Below, piece after piece: positions 1,678-8,373 of a stretch of DNA of 52,579 nt. The first letter of the stretch is position 1. Each line of letters starts with the position of its first letter. This DNA is from a bacterium (GTDB lineage Bacteria; Patescibacteriota; Minisyncoccia; Portnoybacterales; JAKAHB01): positions 1-52,579 of the forward strand of contig JAKAHB010000001.1 of NCBI GenBank assembly GCA_021815315.1, written 5' to 3'. The notes under the pieces were generated by a model. That model worked only from the letters and a program-made list of their open reading frames with translations. It ran no database searches and was not told the DNA's origin. Made by a program: the position numbers and the translations under genes.

Positions 1678-2409
1678 ATGTCTGGGCATAATAAATGGAG
1701 TCAAATAAAACATAAAAAAGCCGCTTCTGATGCCAAAAAAGCCCAGAGCTTTTCCAAGTTGGCCAAACAAATTTCTTTGGCAGCCAAAGAAGGCGGCGGG
1801 GATCCTTCGGCCAACGTGGCCTTGCGCATGTGGATGGAAAAAGCCAAGACCGTTAATATGCCTATCGCCAACATCGATAAGGCTGTCAAGCGCGGCACCG
1901 GCGAGCTGGCTGGAGCAGAGATCAAACCTTTTCTATACGAAGCCTATGGTCCCGGAGGCGTGGCTCTGTTGATTGAAGGCGCCACCGACAATACCAACCG
2001 CACCAATTCGGAAGTTAAACACCTGCTAAATAAACTGGGGGCCAAGTGGGCCGAGTCCGGGAGCGTGAGTTACCTTTTTGAAAGAAAAGGTCTTATTTTT
2101 GTTGATAAAACTAAAACTAAAAAATCGGCTGACGATTTGGAAATGGCTGTTATTGAAGCCGGTGCCAGCGATACTCAATGGGTGGAAGAAAACGTCTTGC
2201 AGGCAATCACCGAGCCGGACATGCTAGACCTAGTTCAGGACGGCCTGAAAGAGGCCAAGCTAACAATTGAAGACTCTTTGCTAGGCTATCTGGCCAAAAT
2301 GGAAATCGAGGTTGACGACGAAAAAACGCGGCAACAGCTGGCCAACATCTTTGAAGCATTGGAAGAACACGAGGATGTTAACAGTGTTTATTCAAACGCG
2401 AAGTTTTAG
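1678..2409 (+). CDS. yebC: YebC/PmpR family protein
   Basis: MSGHNKWSQIKHKK N-terminus, YEAYGPGG and TDNTNRT motifs; usual position next to ruvC. Confidence 0.97.
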   Translation: MSGHNKWSQIKHKKAASDAKKAQSFSKLAKQISLAAKEGGGDPSANVALRMWMEKAKTVNMPIANIDKAVKRGTGELAGAEIKPFLYEAYGPGGVALLIEGATDNTNRTNSEVKHLLNKLGAKWAESGSVSYLFERKGLIFVDKTKTKKSADDLEMAVIEAGASDTQWVEENVLQAITEPDMLDLVQDGLKEAKLTIEDSLLGYLAKMEIEVDDEKTRQQLANIFEALEEHEDVNSVYSNAKF

Positions 2410-2427
2410 ACTTAAAAATTGCCGCCT

Positions 2428-2898
2428 ATGCTCATTCTCGGTTTTGACCCCGGCACGACTCTAATCGGTTTTGGACTAATAGTTAAAGACTGCCAGCAGT
2501 TAAGCGCTGTTGATTACGGTTGCATCAACACCACTGCTTGCGCGCCGCAAGACAGGTTGCGCCAGCTGGAAAAACAAGTTTCTGATTTAATTGCCAAGCA
2601 CCAACCGGATTTTATTTCTATCGAAAAGCTGTTTTTTTCAAAAAACGTCAAAACCGCCATGTCCGTCAGCGAGGCCCGCGGAGTTATTGCTCTGTGCGCC
2701 CAAAAAAGTCAGAGCTCAATTTTTGAATACACTCCGCCGCAGATCAAACAAGCCGTCGTTGGTTACGGCCAAGCTACTAAAAAACAAGTGCAACAAATGG
2801 TAAAAGCTATCTTAAAATTAAACGAGGTCCCCACGCCCGATGACACAGCCGATGCTCTAGCCGCGGCCATCTGTTGCGCCCATTCGGAAAGGTTTTAA
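2428..2898 (+). CDS. ruvC: Holliday junction resolvase RuvC
   Basis: ILGFDPG (D7), SIEKLFF (E66), PDDTADALA acidic residues; ATG at 2428 preferred. Confidence 0.96.
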   Translation: MLILGFDPGTTLIGFGLIVKDCQQLSAVDYGCINTTACAPQDRLRQLEKQVSDLIAKHQPDFISIEKLFFSKNVKTAMSVSEARGVIALCAQKSQSSIFEYTPPQIKQAVVGYGQATKKQVQQMVKAILKLNEVPTPDDTADALAAAICCAHSERF

Positions 2899-2903
2899 TC
2901 TTT

Positions 2904-3548
2904 ATGCACGAATTTACCCAGGCAATTCTCGCCGTTGGTGTTCCTAGGGACACCATCGTCTATTTAATCGGCTTGCCGGTGCTGGCAACCCTGATCGCTT
3001 TCGCCCGTCAGATTGTCGGCATTAAAGGTTTTGGTATTTATACTTCTTTGTTGCTGGCGCTTTCGCTGGTGGCTTTGGGGGCTAAATATGGATTGGCCAC
3101 CTTTGTGACCATCTTAGTGGTGGGCACTTTTACTCGTTTTTTAATTAAAAAATTACGCCTGACTTACCTGCCCCGCATGGCGCTGTTGATAACCGTCGTG
3201 TCACTGGCTTTGCTGGTTATGTTTTACGCCGCCGGATATTTTGCCCGAGCCGGTATCTTCGCCACTTCGATTTTAGCTGTTTTGATTATGCTGTCGTTGA
3301 TAGAAAAATTCATTTCCGCTCAAATTGAAAAGGGCGGCAAGGCGGCCATTCTTTTAATCTTAGAAACTCTAGCTCTGGCCTTGACTTCTTATTATCTGAT
3401 TACCTGGAAATCTTTTCAAAAAATAATTTTGGAGTTTCCCGTATTAATTATTACCGGATCTATTGTCTTTAATATTTTGTTAGGCAAGTGGACCGGCTTG
3501 CGTCTGTTTGAGCGTTGGCGCTTTCGCGAAATTTTGAAGAAAATCTAA
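2904..3548 (+). CDS. 7TM membrane protein of the family usually fused to an inactive transglutaminase (7TM_transglut-like), here standalone
   Basis: LPVLATLIAFARQIVGIKGFGIY, LTYLPRMALL and LGKWTGLRLFERWRFR signatures; about 7 hydrophobic helices; sits directly before an alpha-L-glutamate ligase-like gene. Confidence 0.85.
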   Translation: MHEFTQAILAVGVPRDTIVYLIGLPVLATLIAFARQIVGIKGFGIYTSLLLALSLVALGAKYGLATFVTILVVGTFTRFLIKKLRLTYLPRMALLITVVSLALLVMFYAAGYFARAGIFATSILAVLIMLSLIEKFISAQIEKGGKAAILLILETLALALTSYYLITWKSFQKIILEFPVLIITGSIVFNILLGKWTGLRLFERWRFREILKKI

Positions 3549-3549
3549 T

Positions 3550-4875
3550 ATGATCTGGCAAGCTTTTATTCGCAACCGCAAAAAAGTGCTGGGCATAAAC
3601 GCTCGCTCTCTTCTCTACACTCGACCCTCTAATAAAAAGAGGGCAATTGAAATTGCCGATAACAAATTACTAGCCAAAAAAATCCTTAAGAAAGCCGGAC
3701 TCCCGGTTTTGGAAACCTATCAAATTCTCAAAAGCAACCGGGAGGTTAAAAGCTTTGGCTTTTCTATTTTGCCAAAAAGTTTTGTTTTAAAACCAAACGC
3801 CGGTTTTGGCGGAGATGGTATTCTGGTTGTTTACGGGAAAAAGAAAAACAAGGACGATGTTTGGGTTAAGGCCGATCGCGACTTGGTGAAGGTTGCCGAT
3901 TTAAAAAGTCACTGCTTCAGTATTGTAGATGGAGATTTTTCTCGCCTGGGATTGCCGGATGTCGCCTTTTTTGAAGAAAGATCGAAAATTTCCAAATTGC
4001 TGAAGCCTTATTGCTTTCGCGGCGTCCCTGACATTAGGATAATTGTCTATAATTTGGTGCCAGTAATGGCCATGCTTAAATTGCCCACCAGGGAATCTGC
4101 CGGCCGCGCCAATATGCATCGCGGCGGTATTGCCATTGGCATTGATCTGGGCACCGGCGTGACCACTACCGCCACTTACAGGGGCCTTCCGGTTGAAAAG
4201 CTTCCCGGTACCCGCTTGCTGCTTTCCGGCCTTAAAATCCCTTTTTGGAAAGACTTTTTGATCATCGCTGGCCGCGCTCAAGAAGTTACCGGCATTGGCT
4301 ATTTGGGAATTGACTTGGCGTTGGATCGGGACAAAGGCCCGGTAATTCTGGAACTTAACGCCCGACCGGGGCTGGGCATCCAGCTGGCCAACCAAACAGG
4401 GCTAGCCGAACGACTTAACCGCGTCAAAGGACTTAAAATCAATTCTGTCAAGAAGGGTGTACGCGTTGGCCAAGATCTTTTTGGTGGAGAAATTGAGGAA
4501 GAGCTGGAAGAAATTTCCGGCCGCAAGGTTATCGGCATTAACGAGCCGATAAAAATTTTCCCCCCCGAAGGCTTACCCCTGGAAACCGTCGCTAAGATTG
4601 ACACCGGGGCGTATCGCTCCACCATTTGCACTAGTATCGCTGAAAAGCTGGGGCTAAACAAGATTGTTAACTACAAGAAAGTAAAAAGCGCCCTGGGAGA
4701 AGCCGAGCGTCCGCTGGTGGAAGCCTCTTTTTCTCTGGATAAAAGAACTGTCAGCACCGAGGTCTTCCTAGCCGATCGATCGGAGATGAAATATGACGTT
4801 ATTGTTGGCCGCAAGGACTTAAAAAGGTTTCTGGTTGATCCGGCAAAAAATGTGTTTATGGGAAAGAGAAAGTAA
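3550..4875 (+). CDS. Alpha-L-glutamate ligase-like ATP-grasp (RimK-related) fused to a C-terminal RimK-associated aspartic-type protease domain
   Basis: LGINARS, ADNKL, FVLKPNAGFGGDGILV, GVPDIRII, ANMHRGG, LELNARPGLGIQLAN; C-terminal domain with AKIDTGAYRSTI and LADRSEMKYDVIVGR. Confidence 0.88.
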   Translation: MIWQAFIRNRKKVLGINARSLLYTRPSNKKRAIEIADNKLLAKKILKKAGLPVLETYQILKSNREVKSFGFSILPKSFVLKPNAGFGGDGILVVYGKKKNKDDVWVKADRDLVKVADLKSHCFSIVDGDFSRLGLPDVAFFEERSKISKLLKPYCFRGVPDIRIIVYNLVPVMAMLKLPTRESAGRANMHRGGIAIGIDLGTGVTTTATYRGLPVEKLPGTRLLLSGLKIPFWKDFLIIAGRAQEVTGIGYLGIDLALDRDKGPVILELNARPGLGIQLANQTGLAERLNRVKGLKINSVKKGVRVGQDLFGGEIEEELEEISGRKVIGINEPIKIFPPEGLPLETVAKIDTGAYRSTICTSIAEKLGLNKIVNYKKVKSALGEAERPLVEASFSLDKRTVSTEVFLADRSEMKYDVIVGRKDLKRFLVDPAKNVFMGKRK

Positions 4876-4901
4876 TTAAATTATGATTTTTAGTTTAGCC
4901 T

Positions 4902-6407
4902 GTGTTAATCAAAGACCTTAAGACAACCAAAGAGTTTTTTGCCAAACAGGTTAGCCAGCCGATTTTTGGCGTGGGAGTTTGGGCTTTTAACCGCTTGGGG
5001 TTGGAGGAGGTTTTTGACGACTATCGCCTTCTTTGTCTACGTCACAGCCCCGACACCGAGCTGATGGAAAAAGATTTAAAAGTCTTGTCTCTGGAAAAAG
5101 GGCTCGGGAACAAGCACCTGGATGTTCCCCGAAATTCAACTAGTATTTTACGGCACGAAAGAACCATCGCTCTTTTAAAGTCTTTTAAGAATCCCTTAAT
5201 CATCCCCTATAAGTCATCGAGCGGCATAGAATCGGTTTGCCAAGAATATAACTGGCGACTGGGCATCGCGCCGGTCAAGTTTGGCAAAAAAATGTTTGAA
5301 AACAAAGTTTTTTTTCGCCGAGTTTTGGACGGCCTGGGCATTGCCGTCCCTTCCGGCCTGATTATTCCTTTCTCTCAATTGAGCTTTAAGCTGGGTAAAG
5401 AAAAATTGGGGTTGCCTTTTGTTATCCAACATCCGACTCGGGGCGGAGGCAAGGGCACTTTTTTCATCCACACCCAAGAAGATTTTGCTTTAGCTTTTTT
5501 GAAGCTAATCAAGCCGCCCCAAATTGAAGAGGGCGAAGAGGCAAAAGCAGACGATGTCCCGAAAGAAATTGTTATCGCCAAGTTTATTAAGGGACCATCT
5601 CCTAGTATTACCGCTTGTGTAACTCGCCAGGGAATTTTGAGCACCAATCTCCAACAACAAGTTTTAGACATTCCGGAACTTTTCAGTCCCAAAAAAGGTT
5701 CTGGTCTTTTCTGCGGGCACGATTGGACCACGTCCGACTCCTTGAGCCACAGCTTAAACCAGCAAGCCAATCAAATCGCCCAAAGGGTCGGCTATTATTT
5801 TCAAAAACAAGGCTATCAAGGAATATTCGGCCTGGATTTTATCGCGGACGAAAGAGCGGAAAAACTGTATTTAGTGGAATGCAATCCGCGCATGACCGGG
5901 GTTTTTCCCACGCTGGAGATGGCTTTGACGGAATCGGGCGCGCCTCCGCTGCTGGCTTTTCACGCTCTTGAATATTTAAACGCCGATTACGAGCTGGATG
6001 TCGTAGCCATAAACAAGCTGCTGCAACAACCCAAAAAAGGCGCGCATCTCTTTCTGCATAATTTAACCGAACGCTGGGCTTATAATTTTGGAGTTCTAAA
6101 GCCCGGCGTCTATACATTGGTTAAAAATCGCCCGCAATTTCAGCGCTCTGGTTACAAATTGCGAGACATTCAAGCGTCCGGAGAGTTTTTAATAACTGAA
6201 GGTGTCCCGACTTACAAAAATTATTTCAGTCCTAACCGTCGACTCTGCCGCATCCTTACCAAAGACGCAGTCTTAGAAAAACCAGGGAGCCTTAATGCTT
6301 GGGCACGTCAGGTTGCCGGGGCAGTTTATAAAGAGTTTAAAATAAGACCTATTCACTTCGCCAAAATAAAAAAATTATTCAATAAAAATTTTCTTATAAA
6401 AGGATGA
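4902..6407 (+). CDS. ATP-grasp domain protein (uncharacterised family, often loosely labelled biotin carboxylase-like)
   Basis: FENKVFFR, PFVIQHPTRGGGKGTFFI, FCGHDW, GYQGIFGLDFI, LVECNPRMTG ATP-grasp motifs; GTG start. Confidence 0.8.
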   Translation: MLIKDLKTTKEFFAKQVSQPIFGVGVWAFNRLGLEEVFDDYRLLCLRHSPDTELMEKDLKVLSLEKGLGNKHLDVPRNSTSILRHERTIALLKSFKNPLIIPYKSSSGIESVCQEYNWRLGIAPVKFGKKMFENKVFFRRVLDGLGIAVPSGLIIPFSQLSFKLGKEKLGLPFVIQHPTRGGGKGTFFIHTQEDFALAFLKLIKPPQIEEGEEAKADDVPKEIVIAKFIKGPSPSITACVTRQGILSTNLQQQVLDIPELFSPKKGSGLFCGHDWTTSDSLSHSLNQQANQIAQRVGYYFQKQGYQGIFGLDFIADERAEKLYLVECNPRMTGVFPTLEMALTESGAPPLLAFHALEYLNADYELDVVAINKLLQQPKKGAHLFLHNLTERWAYNFGVLKPGVYTLVKNRPQFQRSGYKLRDIQASGEFLITEGVPTYKNYFSPNRRLCRILTKDAVLEKPGSLNAWARQVAGAVYKEFKIRPIHFAKIKKLFNKNFLIKG

Positions 6408-7114
6408 AAATATCCGTTCTTGTCGTCGCCCACAACGAAGAAGAATATATCGCCAAGTGCATTGACTCGTTGTTGGTCCAAACTTTAGTTCCGGACGAAA
6501 TTATTATTGTCTGCCACAATTGCTCCGACTCAACTCCGGAAATCGTCAGGAGCTATGGCGCCAAAGTTAAACTCGTAGAATACGCGGGTCCGGAAGGAAT
6601 TATCCCTGCTCGCATCCGAGCTTTTGCAGAAGCGCGAAACGAAATGATCGCTTGCCTTGACGGCGACTCAAGCGCTTGCAAAAATTGGCTTAAACGGTTA
6701 GTCGAACCCCTAAAAAATTCGGCCATCTCAGGCGTTGGCGGGTGTATCCAGCTAACCGGAAACTTGCGCGCCCGCCTGACAAGTATCGGGTTTTTCTTTC
6801 TTGACCGGTTTGTTAACAAGCAATATAAATTTTATTTTTGGGGCGCAAATTTCGCTTGCCGCAAATCAGACTATCTCAAGCTGGGCGGTTTTGAAAAAAT
6901 AGCAAACCTCAAAAAAAGCTTGCAGTTAAATTACACCGCCGAAGATCTTATTTTTTCCTTGTCGCTCGAAAAATTAGGAAAAGTTGTCTTCGCGCCAACG
7001 GCTTTGGTTTGGTCCCCGGCCGCCGAAATTGGCTCTTTTGGTTGGGAGGAAAGAAGAAAAAAGCAAAACGAAGATCGAAAAAAGGTTTTTGAATATTTCG
7101 GCCTTGCAAAATAA
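6404..7114 (+). CDS. Glycosyltransferase family 2 (GT-A fold)
   Basis: ISVLVVAHNEE, CLDGD (DxD), GANFACRK, AEDL; ATGA overlap with the preceding gene. Confidence 0.9.
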   Translation: MKISVLVVAHNEEEYIAKCIDSLLVQTLVPDEIIIVCHNCSDSTPEIVRSYGAKVKLVEYAGPEGIIPARIRAFAEARNEMIACLDGDSSACKNWLKRLVEPLKNSAISGVGGCIQLTGNLRARLTSIGFFFLDRFVNKQYKFYFWGANFACRKSDYLKLGGFEKIANLKKSLQLNYTAEDLIFSLSLEKLGKVVFAPTALVWSPAAEIGSFGWEERRKKQNEDRKKVFEYFGLAK

Positions 7115-7130
7115 TAATTTTTGGACTCAT

Positions 7131-7164
7131 AAAGGCCTGGCCTCGTAAAACGGGCCAGGCCTTT
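7131..7164. terminator. Hairpin/bidirectional terminator between convergent GT2 and tyrS
   Basis: aaaggcctggcc(t)cgt-aaa-acgggccaggccttt inverted repeat. Confidence 0.75.
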
Positions 7165-7182
7165 GTCATCTCTAAAAGAGAG

Positions 7183-8373
7183 TCATTCCACCTCAAAAAA
7201 TTTTCTGGGACCGACTTGAATAACGTCTTTGCTTTTAACCTCTCCCGGTTCTTTCCAGTCGGTTATTTTTTTATCGTTTAATTTTACTCCGCCCTGCTCC
7301 ATTAACCGGCGCGCCTCTCCCTTCGAGCCAGCCGCTCCGATGGCTATCAGAGCATCAAGAGACAGTTCAGCAATCTTTACCTTGGGCATCTCTGTTGGCT
7401 TCTCTCCTTTTTGAAAGACTTTTTTAAATTCTTCTTCTGCTTCCAACGCTGCTTTTTCTCCATGATAAAGTTTGGTCAACTCAAAAGCCAGTTTCATTTT
7501 AGCGTCGCGCGGATTAAGGCTTTCGTTCTTCAACGCCTCTTCAATCTCTTTTATCTCTTCCAGCGACATTTTGGTCGTCAGCCTGAAGTAATCTGTGATA
7601 TATTCGTCCTTCATGGACATTATCTTGCCATACTTTTCTTGCGGCTCATCCAGAATGGTGATGATATTTCCCCAGGAAGTGCTCATTTTGCGACCGTCCA
7701 GACCATAGAGCATTTCGTAGGTCATGATGTCCTGCGGCTCCTGACCGAATCTCTTTTGAATGATTCTTCCGGCTTTCAGGTTAAAAAGCTGGTCCGAACC
7801 CCCTGTTTCCACGTCGGCTTTAATCGCCACCGAATCGTAGCCCTGCATCAGAGGATACATAAACTCGTGTAAACCGATTTCCTCGCTTCGCTCGTCTCTC
7901 TCTTTAAAATTGCGACGATTAAGCATTTGGCGGACGGTAAACAGCGAAGCCAGGCCAATAACACCGCCGAAATTCATTTGTCCCAACCATTCGGAATTGC
8001 GGCGCAACTCCACTTTATCCAGGTCCAAAATCATCGCCAGTTGCCGGTTATATTCTTCGGCGTTGCTTTCCAGCTCCTCTTTGGTTTTCATCGGACGCTG
8101 TGAAGTCTTGTCCGAAGCATCGCCGAGTTGCCCGGTAAAATCACCGATAATCAAAACTACTTGATGTCCTAAGTCTTGAAATTCTCGCAGCTTCCAAAGC
8201 GCGATCGCGCGACCTAGGTGCAGTTTTGGTCCGGTTGGATCAATGCCTAATTTTACCCGCAGCTTTTCTCCGGCCATCAAACGCTTTTTCAGGTGGTCAC
8301 GATCAATAACATCCTCTACGCCGCGGGTTAAAATTTCTTCTATTTTTTTTTCGTCAACGATAATGTTAGACAT
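7183..8373 (-). CDS. tyrS: Tyrosine--tRNA ligase
   Basis: KLGIDPTGPKLHLGR (HIGH variant), YPLMQGYDS, GGSDQLFN, KMSTS (KMSKS variant), C-terminal S4-like domain. Confidence 0.97.
   Translation of the reverse strand: MSNIIVDEKKIEEILTRGVEDVIDRDHLKKRLMAGEKLRVKLGIDPTGPKLHLGRAIALWKLREFQDLGHQVVLIIGDFTGQLGDASDKTSQRPMKTKEELESNAEEYNRQLAMILDLDKVELRRNSEWLGQMNFGGVIGLASLFTVRQMLNRRNFKERDERSEEIGLHEFMYPLMQGYDSVAIKADVETGGSDQLFNLKAGRIIQKRFGQEPQDIMTYEMLYGLDGRKMSTSWGNIITILDEPQEKYGKIMSMKDEYITDYFRLTTKMSLEEIKEIEEALKNESLNPRDAKMKLAFELTKLYHGEKAALEAEEEFKKVFQKGEKPTEMPKVKIAELSLDALIAIGAAGSKGEARRLMEQGGVKLNDKKITDWKEPGEVKSKDVIQVGPRKFFEVE

Follow-up and report, generated by a model that had tools for sequence, protein, structure and literature searches.

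What do four tightly packed genes in a Patescibacterial contig make, and which of them belong together? The window, a stretch of 52,579 nucleotides (contig JAKAHB010000001.1 of assembly GCA_021815315.1), carries at positions 2904–7114 genes for a seven-transmembrane (7TM) protein (G1), an ATP-grasp ligase fused to a retropepsin-like protease (G2), a second ATP-grasp protein (G3) and a family 2 glycosyltransferase (GT2; G4). They had been described in an initial annotation as one four-gene module that builds, trims and possibly glycosylates a peptide. G1, G2 and G3 form a conserved cassette. The reading put forward here, which we hold with about equal parts of confidence and reserve, is that G1–G3 constitute a compact Patescibacterial ligase-peptidase system of the Rlo type, located in a yebC-ruvC operon and building and trimming an acidic peptide at the membrane, with G4 as a local addition. 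The four genes are arranged as follows:

2904–3548, plus strand: G1, 7TM membrane protein, 214 aa, ATG start (PF14402)
3550–4875, plus strand: G2, ATP-grasp ligase with a C-terminal retropepsin-like domain, 441 aa (PF14397, PF05618)
4902–6407, plus strand: G3, second ATP-grasp protein, 501 aa, GTG start (PF02655)
6404–7114, plus strand: G4, GT2 glycosyltransferase, 236 aa (PF00535)

G2 was matched by ATPgrasp_ST (PF14397) with 214.1 bits (cut-off 31.4; E = 3e-63), and its C-terminal part by the retropepsin-like family PF05618 with 34.3 bits (cut-off 27; 2.5e-8), the only match to this family in the genome. Three parts of the protein were delimited:

3604–4428, plus strand: ATP-grasp domain of G2, residues 19–293, the stretch matched by PF14397
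4483–4536, plus strand: acidic, Glu-rich linker of G2, residues 312–329, from conservation in 19 orthologues
4537–4866, plus strand: retropepsin-like domain of G2, residues 330–439, with the catalytic D-T-G at 4600–4608, from the alignment with PDB entries 9g58/9g59

The AlphaFold2 (AF2) model of G2 reached a predicted local distance difference test (pLDDT) score of 78.0 and a predicted template modelling (pTM) score of 0.66. The folds nearest to the ligase domain were ArgX (Z-score 17.7, root-mean-square deviation 2.9, 212 aligned residues), RimK (Z 16.1, 24% identity) and LysX/ArgX (Z 15.6); ArgX, LysX and RimK all act on the C-terminal glutamate of a protein. The C-terminal domain was closest to retroviral proteases, namely those of equine infectious anaemia virus (EIAV; Z 11.7), foamy virus (11.0) and human immunodeficiency virus (HIV; 10.4). 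Residues K81, the G88/G90 loop, D255, E268 and N270 of the ligase were invariant in 19 orthologues and are read as ATP- and Mg-binding motifs. The D-T-G retropepsin motif is intact as well: in the best sequence alignment of the protease domain, D351-T-G353-A354 fell on the motif of 9g58/9g59, which we take to be RloA-type structures (deposited merely as 'putative ATP-dependent zinc protease domain'), and D351, G353 and A354 were invariant in the same 19 orthologues. When the sequence of G2 was read for an N-terminal hydrophobic segment or signal peptide, none was found.

The linker between the two domains contains four glutamates (E316, E317, E320 and E321) that were invariant or nearly so in the 19 orthologues, and pLDDT fell below 50 at residues 316–329. 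It could serve as a pseudo-substrate or self-cleavage site, since relatives of this protease cut poly-Glu. G2 differs in make-up across the phylum. One form, of about 430–490 aa, consists of ligase and retropepsin. At locus L136 G2 is about 800 aa long and carries a MATCAP-type metallopeptidase in addition to both domains, and the homologues at loci L148–L150 (about 670–800 aa) combine the ligase with MATCAP, their D-T-G having decayed to D-L-G, D-L-H or D-P-H in a retropepsin domain that is no longer detected by Pfam. At L148–L150, it looks as if a MATCAP eraser peptidase had replaced the retropepsin. A PF08014 (MATCAP) search of the window's genome gave no match, but control genomes gave none either.

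G1 was matched by 7TM_transglut (PF14402) with 75.6 bits (cut-off 25; 5.6e-21) over profile positions 58–247 of 248, and it covers positions 314–507 of the 508 positions of the NCBIfam RloB model, scoring 49.5 bits where the cut-off is 900. Only the 7TM part of the family is thus represented, the protein being 214 aa long, as compared with about 508 aa, and lacking an ectodomain. Seven hydrophobic segments were read from the sequence, and the Lys/Arg-rich loops 1, 3 and 5 together with the C-terminal tail place, by the positive-inside rule, the N-terminus outside and the C-terminus inside. Polar residues invariant in 16 orthologues, among them R35, Q36, R78, R85, Y88, P90, E134, Q140, E154, T155, N190, W196, R200, E203 and R206, lie for the most part in helices and on the side predicted to face the cytoplasm. 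No named look-alike of use turned up outside PF14402 when the ESM Atlas was searched by features, and the best non-family structural rows had template modelling (TM) scores of 0.33 or less.

In 17 phylum-level loci, G1 occurred in nine long (506–530 aa) and eight short (212–305 aa) forms. All nine long forms (L136, L137, L138, L140, L143, L144, L148, L150 and L155) have an N-terminal PKD domain in place of the transglutaminase domain, accompanied by about 180 unassigned residues; the proteobacterial 7TM forms have an inactive transglutaminase at the place where the Patescibacterial long forms have PKD. A search for longer proteins related to G1 returned ten, seven with PKD and 7TM and three with the 7TM family only. 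The ESM Atlas cluster list additionally contains two unconfirmed fusions of 7TM_transglut, one with ATPgrasp_ST (Pseudomonadota) and one with a retropepsin-like domain (Actinomycetota); if these 7TM fusions are real, every pair within the triad exists somewhere as a natural fusion.

A complex of G1 and G2 was predicted from our own alignments, for which the benchmark counts hold only roughly. Its ipSAE (interaction prediction score from aligned errors) was 0.51 in each of three runs, whereas the best of three controls stayed at 0.00; at least 82% of contacts were shared between runs, and the partner pLDDT was at least 78. Of the benchmark pairs, 58 of 80 solved complexes attained the ipSAE mark, as did 2 of 110 mismatches; at values of 0.60 or less lay only 7 of the 80 solved complexes, plus both passing mismatches. 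The prediction thus hints that G1 may bind G2.

A 7TM_transglut protein, a cytoplasmic ligase of the ATPgrasp_ST/TIGR02291 type (on G2, PF14397 exceeds its cut-off and TIGR02291 does not) and a D-T-G retropepsin are also encoded side by side in the rlo operon. A genetic characterisation of RloABC in Pseudomonas aeruginosa appeared in 2025 (Lormand et al., bioRxiv 10.1101/2025.03.18.643919; PMC12239564), so that the role of the proteobacterial system, whose target was called unclear in the initial annotation, is not wholly obscure any more. According to the preprint (10.1101/2025.03.18.643919), RloA proteases cut runs of at least eight Glu, a triple protease mutant is rescued by loss of rloB or rloC, and 96% of RloB matches lie in Proteobacteria. 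In Pseudomonas the system has effects on osmotic tolerance, on biofilms, on the shape of the cells and on their sensitivity to antibiotics. The differences are equally specific. RloB has about 508 aa and an inactive-transglutaminase ectodomain, whereas G1 has 214 aa and none; RloA is separate and secreted with a signal peptide, whereas the protease of the window lacks such a peptide and forms the C-terminal part of the ligase protein; the order protease-7TM-ligase in Pseudomonas contrasts with 7TM-ligase/protease; and an extra conserved ATP-grasp, G3, follows the ligase-protease. The matches to PF14402, PF14397 and PF05618 bear out the 7TM/alpha-L-glutamate-ligase-like/protease triad as the right frame for the locus, and with it the earlier statements that the transglutaminase domain is absent (G1 has only the 7TM half of PF14402) and that the protease is fused to the ligase (the PF05618 domain lies at the C-terminus of G2). 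Iyer, Abhiman, Burroughs and Aravind are said to have been the source, in 2009, of the Pfam families 7TM_transglut and ATPgrasp_ST, and reportedly also proposed that ligase and peptidase act on peptide tags or surface polymers.

The second point of comparison is RimK with RimB, a cytoplasmic ATP-grasp and a cytoplasmic retropepsin that binds it; in G2 this association is made permanent by fusion. RimK differs in having no 7TM partner. Models of the RimK group scored below their cut-offs on G2 (TIGR00768 49.2 bits against 143.4; the PRK10446 S6-Glu ligase 16.8 against 331). A PF08443 (RimK) profile search of the genome gave no match at E <= 0.001, and a direct Pfam scan of G2 gave 29.1 bits for PF08443 (cut-off 21) with no single stretch passing. 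A cyanophycin-synthetase-like assignment was not obtained either: TIGR02068 scored 25.5 bits against 850, and no Mur-ligase domain was present in the window's cluster, separate Mur-ligase-like genes standing beside the cassette only in some relatives (L035, L155). Judged by its domains, the cassette would work like Rlo and RimK/RimB, yet it is not a strict member of either, the transglutaminase ectodomain and the secreted protease being missing and every equivalog-level NCBIfam model falling short of its cut-off. In it, a 7TM partner as in Rlo is combined with a protease as in RimB, cytoplasmic and attached to the ligase, and a conserved second ligase is added. A literature search found no description of a Patescibacterial form; the supplementary distribution figures of Lormand et al. 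may show more.

Linkage was determined in the 60 nearest genomes, all of the same order or class. G2 was present in 39 of them and G1 in 38, in every case (38/38) on the same contig and strand and directly upstream of G2; the pair was found in 35 of 36 genomes of one family and in 0 of 16 of another. G3 was present in 25 genomes and lay directly downstream of G2 in 24, genome G002 having it on another contig. No G3 match was obtained with this query in 14 of the 39 G2-bearing relatives, among them G046, whose G2 is cut by a contig end. Unbiased counts are those from these full searches. Gene order was inspected in 20 of the 39 loci, which were chosen by hand (14 taken from the 25 G3-bearing genomes, 6 from the 14 that lack a G3 match), so that ratios among them are not frequencies. 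The order yebC-ruvC-G1-G2 was seen in 19 of the 20, the remaining locus, L040, having yebC, an unassigned open reading frame (ORF) of 221 aa and G2.

At the level of the phylum, G2 relatives (E <= 1e-10) were found in 82 of 251 evenly drawn genomes, the window's own included, and G3-like matches in 40. All 11 strong G3 matches (E <= 1e-61) lay on the contig and strand of G2, 0.3–3.9 kb downstream of it; the weaker ones were scattered, and 17 of the genomes that contain them lack G2. Gene order was taken from 20 phylum-level loci. G1 was directly upstream of G2 in 17, and two loci (L149, L152) show no G1; L139, kept in the denominator, could not be read for G1, as the ORF caller preferred an antisense frame of 1260 aa.

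The slot behind G3, or behind G2 if G3 is lacking, varies among the order-level loci. Eight of the 20 contain co-oriented extra RimK-like ATP-grasp genes (L021, L025, L030, L031 with two, L033, L035, L036 and L037); other occupants are a Mur-ligase-like gene (L035), an M17 aminopeptidase (L024) and a MATCAP-like fragment (L039), and in five loci (L022, L028, L029, L034 and L038) tyrS or PBP1 already comes next. Among the phylum-level loci, arrays made up of ATP-grasps only comprise four genes in L138, three in L141 and two each in L147 and L153, whereas three ATP-grasps are joined by a MATCAP-like gene in L136 and two by a Mur-ligase-like gene in L155.

The Mur-ligase-like genes at this position (L035, L155) raise the possibility of a cell-wall module, in which the ligases would add side-chain or cross-bridge amino acids to lipid II precursors and G1 would bind the lipid-linked substrate. 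ATP-grasp D-Asp ligases exist in Gram-positive cell walls. Genes of the PBP1 type lie within a few genes of the cassette in the window and in many relatives, and a YkuD transpeptidase gene is near in L039, but the PBP1 and tyrS neighbours represent conserved synteny, on the other strand or reading into the cassette, and not a shared operon. The morphology and beta-lactam phenotypes of Pseudomonas rlo mutants, as given in the preprint (10.1101/2025.03.18.643919), would also suit such a role. A dedicated endopeptidase that resembles poly-Glu cutters would be unexpected beside a stem-peptide ligase, however, and no analysis connects the genes to lipid II. We consider this explanation quite unlikely.

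The fold neighbours of G2 lend themselves to a different account, a reversible protein-tagging switch in which the ligases would place a short amino-acid tail on the C-terminus of one specific protein, be it ribosomal (S6 is the protein that RimK modifies) or membrane-bound, and the fused protease would remove it, with no export and with G1 as anchor or sensor. ArgX/LysX and RimK, the folds nearest to G2, act on protein C-terminal glutamate; the protease is cytoplasmic, like RimB; and carboxypeptidases of the MATCAP type replace or join the retropepsin in other Patescibacteria, a combination of ligase and MATCAP that recalls the ligase/eraser logic of tubulin. The cassette moreover probably shares an operon with yebC, and YebC is a translation factor. 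Against these observations stand the obligate 7TM partner (38/38) and the PKD ectodomain found elsewhere (9/9 long forms), which point to the cell surface, and the extra ligases, up to four in L138, which exceed the need of a simple tag. Ribosomal protein S6 of this genome (L156:1498–1935, contig C17) has 145 aa with a long Lys/Glu-rich C-terminal extension and ends in ...IINE; a single terminal Glu gives no indication for or against S6 as a target. Taken together, a tagging switch is rather unlikely in our estimate.

G3 was matched by ATP-grasp_3 (PF02655) with 35 bits (cut-off 23.2; 1.9e-8) and by NF005096 (PRK06524, biotin-carboxylase-like) with 128.6 bits, against a cut-off of 684, over positions 20–481 of 493. 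Its AF2 model had a pLDDT of 89.2 and a pTM of 0.88. The structural neighbours obtained with VIA-align were tied, comprising PylC (Z 21.2), PurK (20.9), PurD (20.1), BesA (20.0), two Streptomyces peptide ligases (19.4–19.7), BL00235 (19.1) and BacD (18.7); Foldseek gave PurK and biotin carboxylases at the top, with TM scores of about 0.5. A profile search of the PDB with G3 returned no close solved relative, the best match (E = 4.4e-8) covering the ATP-binding part only. Invariant in 25 homologues were the glycine-rich K184 loop, D312, E326, N328 and R330, which are read as intact nucleotide- and metal-binding motifs. G3 is an ATP-grasp protein and, on its modelled structure, one of the PurK/L-amino-acid-ligase structural type. 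Naming a substrate class from structure was abandoned, as the Foldseek and VIA-align matches were tied between carboxylases and ligases.

That the second ATP-grasp co-occurs with the 7TM/ligase pair, as the initial annotation had proposed, is borne out by its position in 24 of 25 relatives, by the 11 of 11 strong phylum matches and by a natural fusion, P0163 (926 aa), which unites ATPgrasp_ST, retropepsin and a G3-like domain and hence contains the equivalents of G2 and G3 in one chain. This protein was found in a G3 search of 1.84 billion cluster representatives, in which 1557 proteins reached E <= 1e-3 and 213 reached E <= 1e-30. Further fusions, all in clusters of one or two members each like that of P0163, combine a G3-like domain with retropepsin (P0161), with a MATCAP peptidase (P0121), with RimK-like domains (P0207, P0242) and with GNAT (P0133).

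The likeness of G3 to the L-amino-acid ligases BacD, BL00235 and RizA, and also to BesA, would suit a small soluble product, either a di- or oligopeptide osmolyte or a cyanophycin-like store, released via G1. The ligase domain of G2 also resembles the G domains of cyanophycin synthetase (Z 11.3–12.7), and an osmotic phenotype is attributed to the Pseudomonas system in the preprint (10.1101/2025.03.18.643919). Many other ATP-grasps match equally well, however, a small product is hard to reconcile with a fused endopeptidase that requires long substrates, and the Atlas structure search gave G1 no transporter fold, the best non-family TM score being 0.33 or less. A small peptide is therefore highly improbable.

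G4 is a small, soluble protein matched by PF00535 with 84.7 bits (cut-off 23.3; 9e-24), in whose translation the D-x-D motif is read as D86-G-D88. Its distribution is unlike that of the other three. No G4 orthologue was present in the 60 relatives, in which the best non-self match was 31% identical (E = 3.9e-16) and none adjoined the cassette. The best relative among 185,579 species genomes, 46% identical, came from a Nomurabacteria metagenome-assembled genome (MAG), where it stands alone (L041), on the strand opposite to its neighbours, among genes for Met- and Pro-type tRNA synthetases, an M16 peptidase and a RecO-like protein; the best relatives in the metagenome collection were 44–46% identical. 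When G1, G2 and G3 were compared by tblastn with all 95 loci containing G4 relatives, no match was obtained at E <= 1e-3. From these comparisons, G4 appears to be a lineage-specific local addition in the variable downstream slot.

The fuller version of the proposal, in which the four genes form an obligate pathway and the peptide is turned by the GT2 into a glycopeptide or a peptidylated glycopolymer, draws on the ATGA overlap of G3 and G4, which suggests coupled translation, and on the designation of the Pfam family of G2 as 'sugar-transfer associated'. Sugar genes occur downstream in two distant loci: in L146, a RimK-like gene is followed after 7 nt by a GT2 gene, two genes after G2, and in L140 the genes downstream encode MATCAP, G3, GH130 and GT4, so that GT4 and GH130 lie behind G3. 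The absence of a G4 orthologue beside the cassette in 60 relatives, the count of 0 of 95 G4-relative loci with G1, G2 or G3, the low identity of the best relatives (44–46%), the nearest being a lone gene among tRNA-synthetase genes, and the occupation of the slot by unrelated genes elsewhere all speak against it, and we regard it as very unlikely. In this respect the initial annotation did not hold: its triad frame and the linkage of the second ATP-grasp stood, but the GT2 fails the co-occurrence test as a member of the conserved module. The product might nevertheless be glycosylated, the only grounds being the G3/G4 overlap and the occasional sugar genes in L146 and L140.

Under the Rlo-type reading of G1–G3, the ATP-grasp domain of G2, working where the membrane faces the cytoplasm, would lengthen an acceptor at its carboxyl end by amino acids in alpha-peptide linkage, likeliest glutamate or another acidic residue, and G3 would add a second building block or prime the chain. 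The retropepsin domain would probably dimerise and trim or limit the chain, as RimB does for RimK, while G1 would probably hold the ligase at the membrane and present the product at, or pass it to, the cell surface. A ligase plus eraser on a 7TM platform is proposed because of the family and fold of G2, the intact motifs, the linkage, the fusions and the recurrence of amide ligases and peptidases in the same position; the substrate, the acidic product, its export and the binding of G1 to G2 are what we infer from these.

Several results weigh against this reading. TIGR02291 matched G2 with 262.6 bits, under its curated cut-off of 314.2, and the RloA, RimB and RloB models all remained far below theirs (24.8–29.1 bits against 210–280 for the RloA models on this protease, and 26.2 against 200 for RimB). 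A fused protease without a signal peptide means that the compartment logic of Pseudomonas is not directly transferable. The tie among the neighbours of G3, between carboxylases and peptide ligases, means that its chemistry is not fixed by structure, and 14 of 39 G2 genomes without a G3 match make G3 accessory. The weakness of the G1-G2 complex prediction counts on the same side.

The genes around the cassette set its transcriptional context:

1678–2409, plus strand: yebC (TACO1/YebC family; PF01709 2.7e-46, PF20772 7.2e-28), first gene of the co-oriented cluster
2419–2898, plus strand: ruvC (PF02075 4e-50)
7129–7166, no strand assigned: hairpin between the convergent G4 and tyrS-like genes, GC core 7134–7161
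7183–8373, minus strand: tyrS-like gene, convergent with G4

Six co-oriented plus-strand genes (yebC, ruvC and G1–G4) span 1678–7114. The tight packing of the four genes behind yebC-ruvC was confirmed as first described, with 1 nt between G1 and G2, 26 nt between G2 and G3 and an ATGA overlap of G3 and G4. The starts of G1 and G3 (GTG) agree with the N-termini of orthologues, those of G3 aligning from residue 1. G1 starts a mere 5 nt behind the stop of ruvC, which argues that the four genes are probably not a separate transcription unit, and the sole noncoding promoter-like site on the plus strand lies before yebC (1486–1513); G1–G4 are therefore probably read as part of the yebC-ruvC operon. 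The closing hairpin that had been noted is also present. It lies in the 68-nt space that separates G4 from the tyrS-like gene, and the 69-nt segment 7114–7182, which begins at the last base of the G4 stop, folds with -33.3 kcal/mol. A consensus terminator scan did not list the hairpin at 7129–7166, as it has no T-run behind it. In three metatranscriptome runs of one study, next to none of the sampled words were present.

Of the 20 phylum-level loci, eight (L136–L138, L140, L143, L144, L151 and L155) have yebC and/or ruvC immediately upstream. One relative has an ORF with a NUMOD3 motif (homing-endonuclease-like) between yebC and ruvC (L025:4665–5348), and another a zeta-toxin-family gene just upstream of yebC (L032:3791–4516).

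The genome that contains the window, 99.3% complete, is made up of 27 contigs with 668,883 bases in total. Among named proteins, those of Candidatus Portnoybacteria, in the Parcubacteria group of the Patescibacteria, are closest, with 71% identity to G2 and 63% to G3. That a 0.67 Mb genome keeps the cassette, together with its occurrence in 82 of 251 sampled genomes of the phylum, points to an important role in the envelope of organisms that synthesise very little themselves. A broader picture can be drawn, which as a whole we regard as speculative and rather unlikely: about a third of Patescibacteria would possess a modular, membrane-docked and ribosome-independent peptide assembly line, consisting of a 7TM platform with or without PKD, an RloC-type ligase with built-in retropepsin and/or MATCAP erasers, and one to five interchangeable ligases of the ATP-grasp or Mur type, sometimes with glycosyltransferases. 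In the same picture, the ligase set would encode a lineage-specific composition of polymeric surface peptides or glycopeptides, by which these episymbionts would possibly cope with hosts or osmotic stress, and the acidic linker of G2 would control the protease as pseudo-substrate or self-cleavage site.

The Patescibacterial version is a minimal natural form of the system, with no ectodomain, with ligase and protease in one chain and with a second ligase alongside. Having few proteins and clear catalytic residues, it may offer a convenient biochemical handle on the product of Rlo systems. The variable ligase arrays downstream suggest a combinatorial making of peptides without ribosomes or nonribosomal peptide synthetases (NRPS).

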